Assembly (NCBI GenBank): GCA_963666315.2 | Contig: CAXXHG010000015.1 | Coordinates: forward strand, 1-64,000 | From: Candidatus Binatia bacterium | Lineage (GTDB): Bacteria; Desulfobacterota; Binatia; Bin18 | Direction: 5' to 3' | Length of the DNA: 64,000 nucleotides | Shown: positions 50,939 through 51,252 of the stretch, one piece after another | Numbering within the stretch: position 1 is the stretch's first letter | Layout of the letters: each line of letters begins with the position of its first letter | Notes under the pieces: generated by a model | What the model saw: the letters and a program-made list of their open reading frames with translations, nothing else | The model's database searches: none | What the model was told of the DNA's origin: nothing | Position numbers and translations under genes: made by a program

Positions 50939-51252
50939 TCGGTCGGGTGGACACAACCCTGAGCGTTTCGGCTCCTGTAATGTCACAGGACCGAGCGGAC
51001 CGAGCCTCGGGCCGCTAACGGCGATCGGTTCCTGGCTGAGCGGATTCTGGACCCGCGGTGGGTACGCCGAGAAAGGAGGTGATCTAGTGGCGATATCAAA
51101 TATGGTGATTTGTGAGGTGGTGGCCTCCTAGGCCGACGTACCCAAAATACAGGGTGGTCGCTTGGGAGGACCAGGCACCGCCGAAACCCCGACAGCCCGT
51201 GCTCATCATACACGGGACGTCCGCATAAGGACGTAGCACTGTCGGGGTTTTC
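50939..51252 (+). ncRNA. Unrecognised large structured RNA with an internal SD and 14-codon ORF
   Basis: About ten mutually compatible helices read by eye, including a four-way and a three-way junction; upstream promoter candidate and terminal U-run. Confidence 0.75.
51087..51131 (+). CDS. Short ORF MAISNMVICEVVAS inside the structured RNA
   Basis: GTG start right after AGAAAGGAGGTGATC; TAG stop. Confidence 0.4.
   Translation: MAISNMVICEVVAS

Follow-up and report, generated by a model that had tools for sequence, protein, structure and literature searches.

Known relatives and the locus

Two Rfam families of bacterial small RNAs (sRNAs), Ms_IGR-5 and CC2171, are the closest described systems for the element treated here, a stand-alone, expressed and structured small RNA gene of about 315 nt in a Candidatus Binatia bacterium (assembly GCA_963666315.2). 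The window, meaning the whole stretch of 64,000 nt that was analysed, covers positions 1 to 64,000 of contig CAXXHG010000015.1. The RNA is on its plus strand, at about 50938-51252, and holds a unit made of a giant Shine-Dalgarno (SD) sequence and a 14-codon open reading frame (ORF). This kind of RNA is already known, since both families have been catalogued for more than 10 years without a function. They are now seen to share one design.

Statements on published work, here and below, draw on parts of the cited sources. Ms_IGR-5 (RF02471) is listed as an expressed sRNA in Streptomyces lividans and S. avermitilis (PMC8079986, PMC8780764), and its homologs bear ribosome footprints in the mycobacteria M. 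abscessus and M. smegmatis (PMC4974804). In the consulted parts of these three papers it is treated as an sRNA, with no description of an ORF or of complementarity to 16S rRNA. Translation itself is documented only for the mycobacterial homologs. The RNA of the window fits the general class of translated (dual-function) sRNAs by its promoter-like block and terminator, by the RNA contigs that cover it and by the selection acting on its ORF.

Judged by sequence, the 3' 190 nt of the RNA belong to the same superfamily as Ms_IGR-5. The complete model (positions 1-184 of 184) aligns without truncation to 51064-51257 (+). Both RNAs have, in the same order, the SD, a short ORF with GAGGUG, a post-ORF hairpin and a branched terminator, together with a stop at +15 and a long-range helix. 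We used the giant SD, the short in-frame ORF, GAGGUG, the +15 stop and the helix from the ORF to the pre-terminator segment as the shared Ms_IGR-5 core, which is a criterion derived in the present analysis and not one of Rfam; all of these are present in the window. In terms of RF02471 scores, other loci reach 37.9 bits (Binatia-labelled), 33.4 (Methylomirabilota-labelled), 24.7 (Leptospira), 85 (Streptomyces) and 174.9 (Mycobacterium). The two RNAs also differ. At its 5' side the window RNA has an additional structured domain, about 120 nt long, that holds an anti-SD-like element, and its ORF ends in GCCUCCU, an anti-SD mimic, where the actinobacterial ORF ends in GCUGCCCGC.

CC2171 (RF01867), an alphaproteobacterial sRNA, has been seen on Northern blots in Methylorubrum and Caulobacter, with no condition known to affect it in the part of the report consulted (bioRxiv 10.1101/2022.01.24.477521). 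Its consensus opens with 19 letters, GAAAGGAGGUGAUCCAGUG, running from GAAAGGAGG through the GUG start. The window matches 17 of these 19 letters and class relatives match all 19; ORF sequence, ORF length and paired segment differ. As in the window, a short ORF follows the motif, here with stops of all three kinds, and part of this ORF is paired to the stretch right in front of the terminator, where compensatory changes are seen (CATTGTC/GACAATG versus CATAGT/GACTATG). In contrast, the CC2171 ORF has 14-29 residues, mostly 22-25, its paired segment is at the 5' end of the ORF and not at the 3' end, and its unrelated peptide begins with MSHC, in a sample whose search pattern fixed the first codons. 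CTGGAT(C), which is complementary to the SD flank, is present in 61 of 106 CC2171-type ORFs. Two themes, masking by internal mimics of the 16S tail and the tie between ORF and pre-terminator segment, recur through different sequences. The likeness between CC2171 and the present RNA may come either from homology or from convergence on the 16S tail. The CC2171 model scores 12.4-12.9 bits against a cut-off of 75, and searching the whole genome with it gave no match at E <= 1.

Two other systems are similar in part. The rnTrpL/peTrpL system of Sinorhizobium meliloti is an attenuator-derived sRNA that encodes a leader peptide (PMC6614838, PMC7298713), and it shares with our RNA a small size, an own terminator and a tiny encoded peptide. 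Unlike it, the RNA of the window does not have a codon run for amino-acid sensing, is not followed by a biosynthetic operon and has no known trans target. In Staphylococcus aureus, a start-proximal extension of the SD helix into ...GAUCA... of the 16S tail is physically feasible and has been linked to non-canonical starts (PMC13009471). Those extensions add few pairs on ordinary mRNAs, whereas 15-19 pairs are kept here across phyla in one sRNA.

Our literature search found no paper with an assigned function or a description of the ORF, and the lists of short ORFs in supplementary tables of mycobacterial ribosome profiling (Ribo-seq) studies may include it. In the literature searched, three aspects appear to be undescribed: the occurrence outside Actinobacteria, the extra 5' domain, and the combination of an 18-nt complement with a selected micro-ORF and a covarying helix.

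Giant Shine-Dalgarno, micro-ORF and long-range helix

The sequence AGAAAGGAGGTGATC at 51070-51084 (+) is a perfect 15-nt complement to the 16S 3' tail of its own genome. The assembly has two 16S genes and the 3' ends of both read ...GGCTGGATCACCTCCTTTCTAAG, so that the complementarity refers to the rRNA gene sequence and says nothing on the mature 16S 3' end. With one G-U pair at 51085, the duplex reaches 18-19 pairs and -33.5 kcal/mol (RNAduplex). For comparison, among the 39 long ORFs of the window the upstream 16S duplexes, taking for each ORF the best one near any early start, go down to -18.5 kcal/mol, and their median is -12.2 kcal/mol. The 13-mer GAAAGGAGGTGAT has 3 sites in the 4.99-Mb genome, namely the SD and the antisense of both 16S ends. 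Its reversed control has 0 sites, which places the complementarity beyond chance.

This is the longest natural SD-16S complementarity found in the genome, and it is kept from Actinomycetota to Leptospiraceae and in several lineages represented only by metagenome-assembled genomes (MAGs). Its core GGAGGTG(A/G)TC is invariant across all aligned homologs, and no other part of the RNA is as conserved as the SD in any of the lineages, the alphaproteobacterial CC2171 consensus included. The spacing from the SD to the start codon is normal. An earlier note on this stretch had proposed up to 15 nt of complementarity to the common 16S end, and both own 16S ends bear this out, far beyond GGAGG. The positions it gave are exact in the sequence.

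As for the two 16S genes (L001, G000:C26:527-2050; L002, G000:C29:29581-31134), they clearly diverge in the last ~140 nt and in their flanks, with an identical 3' tail. They could be two divergent operons, or one may lie on a foreign contig in the bin (contamination estimate 1.76%).

The ORF at 51087-51131 (+) runs from GTG (51087-51089) through 14 codons, reading MAISNMVICEVVAS, to TAG (51129-51131). Selection on its frame was assessed in homolog sets collected without reference to the ORF. In our own class (20 distinct sequences out of 31 loci), a canonical in-frame start with a frame open to GAGGTG is present in 20/20 sequences, against 0/20 for each of the other frames, and TAG is found at +15 from GAG in all 20. 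In Actinomycetota (27 distinct sequences out of 28 loci, with the unpublished L178 and L188 left out), the stop is at +15 in 27/27, as TAG in 18, TGA in 6 and TAA in 3, and a canonical in-frame start is found in 18 of the 27. Leptospiraceae retain the ORF in 12/12 loci, always with TAG. The earlier note would have taken homologs without SD or ORF as a refutation; in the three groups both are kept, for Actinomycetota in terms of the stop.

The giant SD is shared by all homolog groups, as are an in-frame start, which in part of the Actinomycetota would be a near-cognate one, and a stop placed 15 nt past the invariant GAGGTG, counted from its GAG. Start codons alternate between GTG, ATG and TTG, and ORF length (12-16 codons) changes in multiples of three. 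The stop varies in kind and never in place, and the start shifts only in frame, a pattern that is difficult to account for if the frame is not read. From this pattern in the sequences, we consider both start and stop of the micro-ORF to be under selection. In addition, a pattern scan of species genomes that allowed 5-11 nt between motif and TAG gave TAG exactly 8 nt past the motif in 80/80 loci examined among the matches listed.

One actinobacterial clade (L172, L174-L176, L179-L182, L184, L185) has CTG, once ATA, in place of the TTG start of its relatives, while the frame is otherwise intact. At these codons, as candidate near-cognate starts, initiation may be driven by the giant SD. Two other ideas on the ORF were rejected. 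A sensor specific for RF1 at UAG would agree with TAG in 20/20 sequences of the class and 12/12 of Leptospiraceae, but not with the 6 TGA and 3 TAA among the 27 actinobacterial sequences. A second cistron restarted from the internal GAGGUG was discarded as there is no start codon near the stop.

The 3' half of the ORF is also one strand of a long-range helix. GGTG and the 4-6 bases that follow it have their pairing partner directly before the terminator, in a segment whose last letters are CACC, so that the ORF strand has the form GGUGnnnn and the opposite strand nnnnCACC; in the window these are 51116-51122 and 51176-51182. The helix was recovered by RNAalifold. Among 29 class-type sequences the pairing holds in 99.0% of cells, and compensatory exchanges are found at 2 pairs. 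For 35 actinobacterial-type sequences, covariation scores 0.236 where shuffled alignments give 0.136, and 0 of 500 shuffles reach the observed value; MAFFT misplaces a one-base bulge in 16 rows and the result holds regardless. Across lineages, 31 distinct 5' strands pair better with their own partner (-16.06 kcal/mol) than with foreign ones (-13.51 kcal/mol), and 0 of 5000 permutations are as good.

This helix and the SD-like motif explain the most conserved residues of the peptide. Compensatory changes swap the C-terminal residues (AA, AT, AV, VC, TG, AD), and both sequence and length vary in the N-terminal half. In our own class, Actinomycetota and Leptospiraceae alike, the nucleotides of GAGGTG never change, and no GAA or GTC/GTA/GTT variant was seen at its two codons. 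Most of the peptide sequence seems free to vary, and the peptide mostly appears to yield to RNA pairing. The question raised earlier, of whether conservation is at the peptide or the nucleotide level, finds its answer mainly in the nucleotides, with a fairly constant peptide within Leptospiraceae and within our own class.

In actinobacteria, a further closing helix that would join a GAATTCC motif to the bases in front of the SD failed a by-eye sequence comparison and was not counted.

Evidence of expression comes from contigs of 4 marine metatranscriptome studies, which are 95-99% identical to the window and span from 50950/50952 to 51192-51300. Together they cover 50950-51223 and nothing upstream, and the lack of cover at 50850-50949 is no evidence of absence. 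Their start at 50950/50952 is a weak hint to the 5' end of the RNA.

Predicted masking of the Shine-Dalgarno and what the RNA may do

The earlier note had described the ORF as caged inside the RNA, with an ORF end, GCCTCCT, that can pair with the SD and an 8-bp stem that closes the whole. The elements of this cage exist in the sequence. GGGTACG (51060-66) faces CGTACCC (51137-43), and the AGGAGGT/GCCTCCT pairing is possible in 94.6% of cells among 29 homologs, 6 of which break the central pair. Covariation between SD and ORF end is impossible because the SD is invariant. The local hairpin 51050-51150 also forms in isolation, at -37.1 kcal/mol (z = -2.81), with 3 of 200 shuffles folding as well.

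The full RNA gives a different picture. In its computed ensemble (50938-51252) the SD core is paired at 0.86, of which 0.81-0.84 is with the upstream segment 51023-33 and 0.05 with the ORF end, and CCUCC pairs with GGGAGG (51164-69) at 0.95. Once the 5' domain is removed, the SD is paired at just 0.38. The element GATCGGTTCCT in the upstream segment is nearly invariant within the genus. According to these folds, the SD is probably masked chiefly by the lineage-specific 5' domain, and the cage between SD and ORF end would be rare. The closing stem, for its part, is paired in about half of the cells only (49-56%). The unit is part of a larger conserved RNA related to Ms_IGR-5, with the long-range helix as its conserved fold.

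We propose that this is a translated RNA that masks itself and for which the engagement of ribosomes counts more than the peptide, an explanation that we consider about evenly balanced between right and wrong. In the resting fold the SD would be masked, in our own genus by the upstream anti-SD-like element and in other lineages by ORF parts that mimic the 16S tail. A free 30S subunit would outcompete these internal partners (-33.5 versus -17 to -19 kcal/mol), clamp on and translate the tiny ORF. Translation would then open the long-range helix and the post-ORF hairpin, and the conserved stop, 9 nt past GAGGUG, would free the ribosome. The output would be the ribosome engagement and the remodelling of the RNA, through an exposed C-rich 3' strand, an altered stability or a readout of free 30S. 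The peptide would be secondary, with the state of the RNA as the functional output. If true, ribosome engagement is itself the signal, and the hypothesis is testable in model bacteria. Among the three readings offered by the earlier note, that of a switchable micropeptide message comes closest: a masked SD is predicted, and start and stop are under selection.

Several points weigh against this explanation. The 30S clamp, the remodelling and the downstream effect are all steps that we infer. The masking partners vary by lineage and come from energy models, and the pairing of SD and upstream element has almost no variation to test it by. The match to Ms_IGR-5 scores 35.2 bits (E of 8.3e-7 to 4.4e-6), under the gathering cut-off of 45, and the host is outside Actinobacteria, the taxon stated for RF02471. 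The metatranscriptome contigs show presence in RNA libraries, and not strand, ends or level. As for the ORF, 9 of the 27 actinobacterial sequences have no in-frame ATG, GTG or TTG, and carry 8 times CTG and once ATA at the homologous place; that clade may either use near-cognate starts or be able to dispense with translation. Finally, the peptide is well conserved within Leptospiraceae, and so are its last 7-9 residues within our own class, which makes a peptide function possible.

Such a function is the core of the alternative that survives best, and which we still regard as unlikely: a micro-protein gene, whose peptide of 12-16 residues is functional and whose SD and fold set a very high or conditional synthesis. 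Selection on start and stop agrees with it. So do the nearly constant last residues, which read T-x-x-C-E-V-V-A-S in our class and T-x-E-V-A-A-R in actinobacteria, the fairly constant peptide of Leptospiraceae, with some synonymous changes (TGT/TGC, AAA/AAG), and the mycobacterial ribosome footprints (PMC4974804). On the contrary, the conserved residues overlay paired or SD-like nucleotides without synonymous variants, GAGGTG among them, and residues -3 to -1 change freely with the compensatory exchanges in the helix. The variable N-terminal half also argues against it, and so do the sister CC2171-type ORFs, which encode unrelated peptides of 14-29 residues. The CC2171-type peptides have no Pfam or NCBIfam match, and the 14-residue peptide of the window is too short for such a search.

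The ribosome could also be the target and not the reader. A decoy, sponge or storage RNA would hold small subunits by its 18-nt complement, or shield the 16S 3' end, with the ORF letting captured ribosomes run off and recycle. We find this reading, which the earlier note also offered, doubtful. It would account for a complementarity that surpasses that of the other window genes by far, has no second instance as a gene's SD in the genome and is the most conserved part of the RNA everywhere, and for a second SD-like GAGGUG inside the ORF. However, a sponge would have to be about as abundant as ribosomes, masking of the SD is predicted for the resting RNA, and sponging alone leaves the strict conservation of helix and terminator unexplained.

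A ribosome-dependent attenuator with a leader peptide and alternative hairpins, or an sRNA released from one, fits the layout, as the 3' part of a short ORF is paired with the segment right before a strong terminator. Against it, the holA-like gene that follows here (51271-52299, minus strand) is convergent. Mycobacterium, Streptomyces, Leptospira and the MAGs each have other neighbours, several of them convergent, and the ORF has no run of regulatory codons. We therefore consider this reading very improbable.

Type I toxin mRNAs are kept silent by SD sequestration. The predicted closing of the SD by anti-SD-like sequences upstream and downstream in the same RNA recalls them, and nine actinobacterial sequences without canonical start would suit a chance ORF in a purely non-coding RNA, but we give next to no weight to either, as the 12-16 residues are variable, only moderately hydrophobic and not enough to span a membrane, nearly all genomes have one copy of the gene, with no conserved partner gene seen in its flanks and no antitoxin RNA seen, and a chance ORF disagrees with the frame test (20/20 versus 0/20) and with three kinds of stop at one position in 27/27. 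A toxin mRNA whose SD stays closed until processing looks unlikely, and so does the toxin-like mRNA suggested earlier.

Beyond the proposal of a translated, self-masking RNA, a broader one can be made, which we put forward as speculation that will probably not hold. The Ms_IGR-5-like RNAs, and by design also the CC2171-like ones, would be an ancient class of ribosome clamps spread over many phyla. Their 18-nt complement to 16S, closed by built-in mimics of the tail, would gauge or buffer free small subunits or shield their 3' ends. The micro-ORF, its stop fixed 9 nt past the internal SD-like GAGGUG, would act as a release-and-reset device and not as a coding gene, and its translation would flip the RNA between two folds.

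The gene, its neighbours and its distribution

The coordinates of the features are collected below. The conserved, hairpin-rich stretch starts at about 50938 in the alignment of genus and order homologs. At least two hairpins of the 5' domain show compensatory changes in this alignment, GGGTGGACACAACCC versus GGGCTGACACAGCCC and TCCTGT/ACAGGA versus CCCTAC/GTAGGG. A stretch of 331 nt folds with z = -4.30, equalled by 0 of 100 shuffles. Upstream of it, the conserved block at 50898-50927 is a putative promoter, and the branched terminator aligns to that of the Ms_IGR-5 model. A simple consensus scan for promoters and terminators gave 0 sites, with criteria that exclude a terminator with a long loop and a promoter-like block with 8 of 12 matches.

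Features of the RNA gene and its surroundings (window positions)
Feature	Position	Strand	Remarks
Promoter-like block: CTGGACC, spacer, CATAATAT	50898-50927	+	Kept as CTaGACC ... TAnnnT in 14 aligned genus/order homologs
Structured 5' domain, several hairpins	50938-51059	+	Present in genus and order
Upstream anti-SD-like element GATCGGTTCCT	51023-51033	+	Predicted SD mask; duplex with SD region -17.1 kcal/mol
5' arm of closing stem	51060-51066	+	Partner 51137-51143; only 49-56% of cells paired in 29 homologs
Hyper-extended SD	51070-51087	+	15 perfect pairs to 16S tail, 18-19 with one G-U
14-codon ORF, GTG start to TAG stop	51087-51131	+	Sole frame kept open with canonical start in own class
Invariant GAGGTG, then GTG	51114-51122	+	SD-like motif; 5' strand of helix is 51116-51122
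GCCTCCT, anti-SD mimic at ORF end	51123-51129	+	Partner AGGAGGT 51074-80, or predicted GGGAGG 51164-69
Post-ORF hairpin region, including GGGAGG 51164-51169	51132-51175	+	RNAalifold and minimum-free-energy folds; length differs among lineages
CACCGCC, 3' strand of helix, directly before terminator	51176-51182	+	Pairing and covariation
Branched intrinsic terminator	51186-51251	+	Outer stem 51186-95/51239-48, inner hairpins 51196-51216 and 51217-51234, then TTTT

In genus relatives (L025, L006), the loop of the first inner terminator hairpin reads ATCACC, with GGATCACC in L025. These are the letters of the 16S tail beside CCUCC, complementary to GGTGAT of the SD flank and the ORF. The window's own loop is degenerate (CATCATA), and a contact between loop and strand in the relatives is a possibility only.

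The RNA lies in a gap of 466 bp between two minus-strand genes, 49764-50804 and the holA-like 51271-52299. The former, divergent from the RNA, is a 346-aa ORF without Pfam family that is retained as neighbour in the genus, in the order and at a Methylomirabilota-labelled MAG locus (L071). Other lineages have other neighbours. In M. triplex there is an aminotransferase-IV gene upstream and a convergent TIR + PknH_C gene downstream, Streptomyces has a PAS protein and a convergent PNPOx gene, and Leptospira has MFS and patatin genes. Clustering of neighbours across phyla gave no common neighbour, with synteny being local only. These differing neighbours, together with the single copy of the gene in nearly all genomes, speak against a cis-acting leader and a toxin-antitoxin cassette.

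At Rfam gathering thresholds nothing is found at the locus, and the sole hit of the window is a full-length tmRNA gene elsewhere (RF00023, 37589-37945, minus strand, 167.9 bits). This calls for caution in annotation, since the region is called neither gene nor RNA at curated thresholds. If correct, the shared design would argue for merging or linking Ms_IGR-5 and CC2171, for extending the families beyond Actinobacteria and for annotating the ORF.

By DNA similarity, 32 of 40 relatives of the genome match (23/24 in the genus, 1/1 in the order and 8/15 in other families of the class), as do 23 of 41 Leptospiraceae genomes, the query genome included. With RF02471, 44 of 151 genomes of Actinomycetota have the RNA, 20 of them above the cut-off; leaving out four unpublished genomes gives 40/147. 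Among loci with a name, those nearest to the window come from MAGs with the labels Methylomirabilota, Deltaproteobacteria and Binatia, and the phylum samples of the genome (G000) and of Mycobacterium are distinct. Covariance model R1, searched in 151 genomes of the phylum, has true matches in our own class only (G000, G013, G028, G033). Another 5 weak matches were rejected as unrelated; two of these, in other classes (L041, L042), are antisense of 16S 3' ends, which are a trap for any search with this RNA.

Lastly, matches listed from the pattern scan are mostly from Actinomycetota. Also among them are Leptospira weilii and MAGs labelled Rokubacteria/Methylomirabilota, Binatia, Deltaproteobacteria, Thermodesulfobacteriota, Myxococcales, Gemmatimonadales and Ignavibacteriaceae. 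Some of the MAG labels look like binning errors. Two MAGs labelled Gammaproteobacteria (L077) and Enterobacteriaceae (L130) carry a copy of mycobacterial and of Thermodesulfobacteriota type, respectively, probably on mis-binned contigs.

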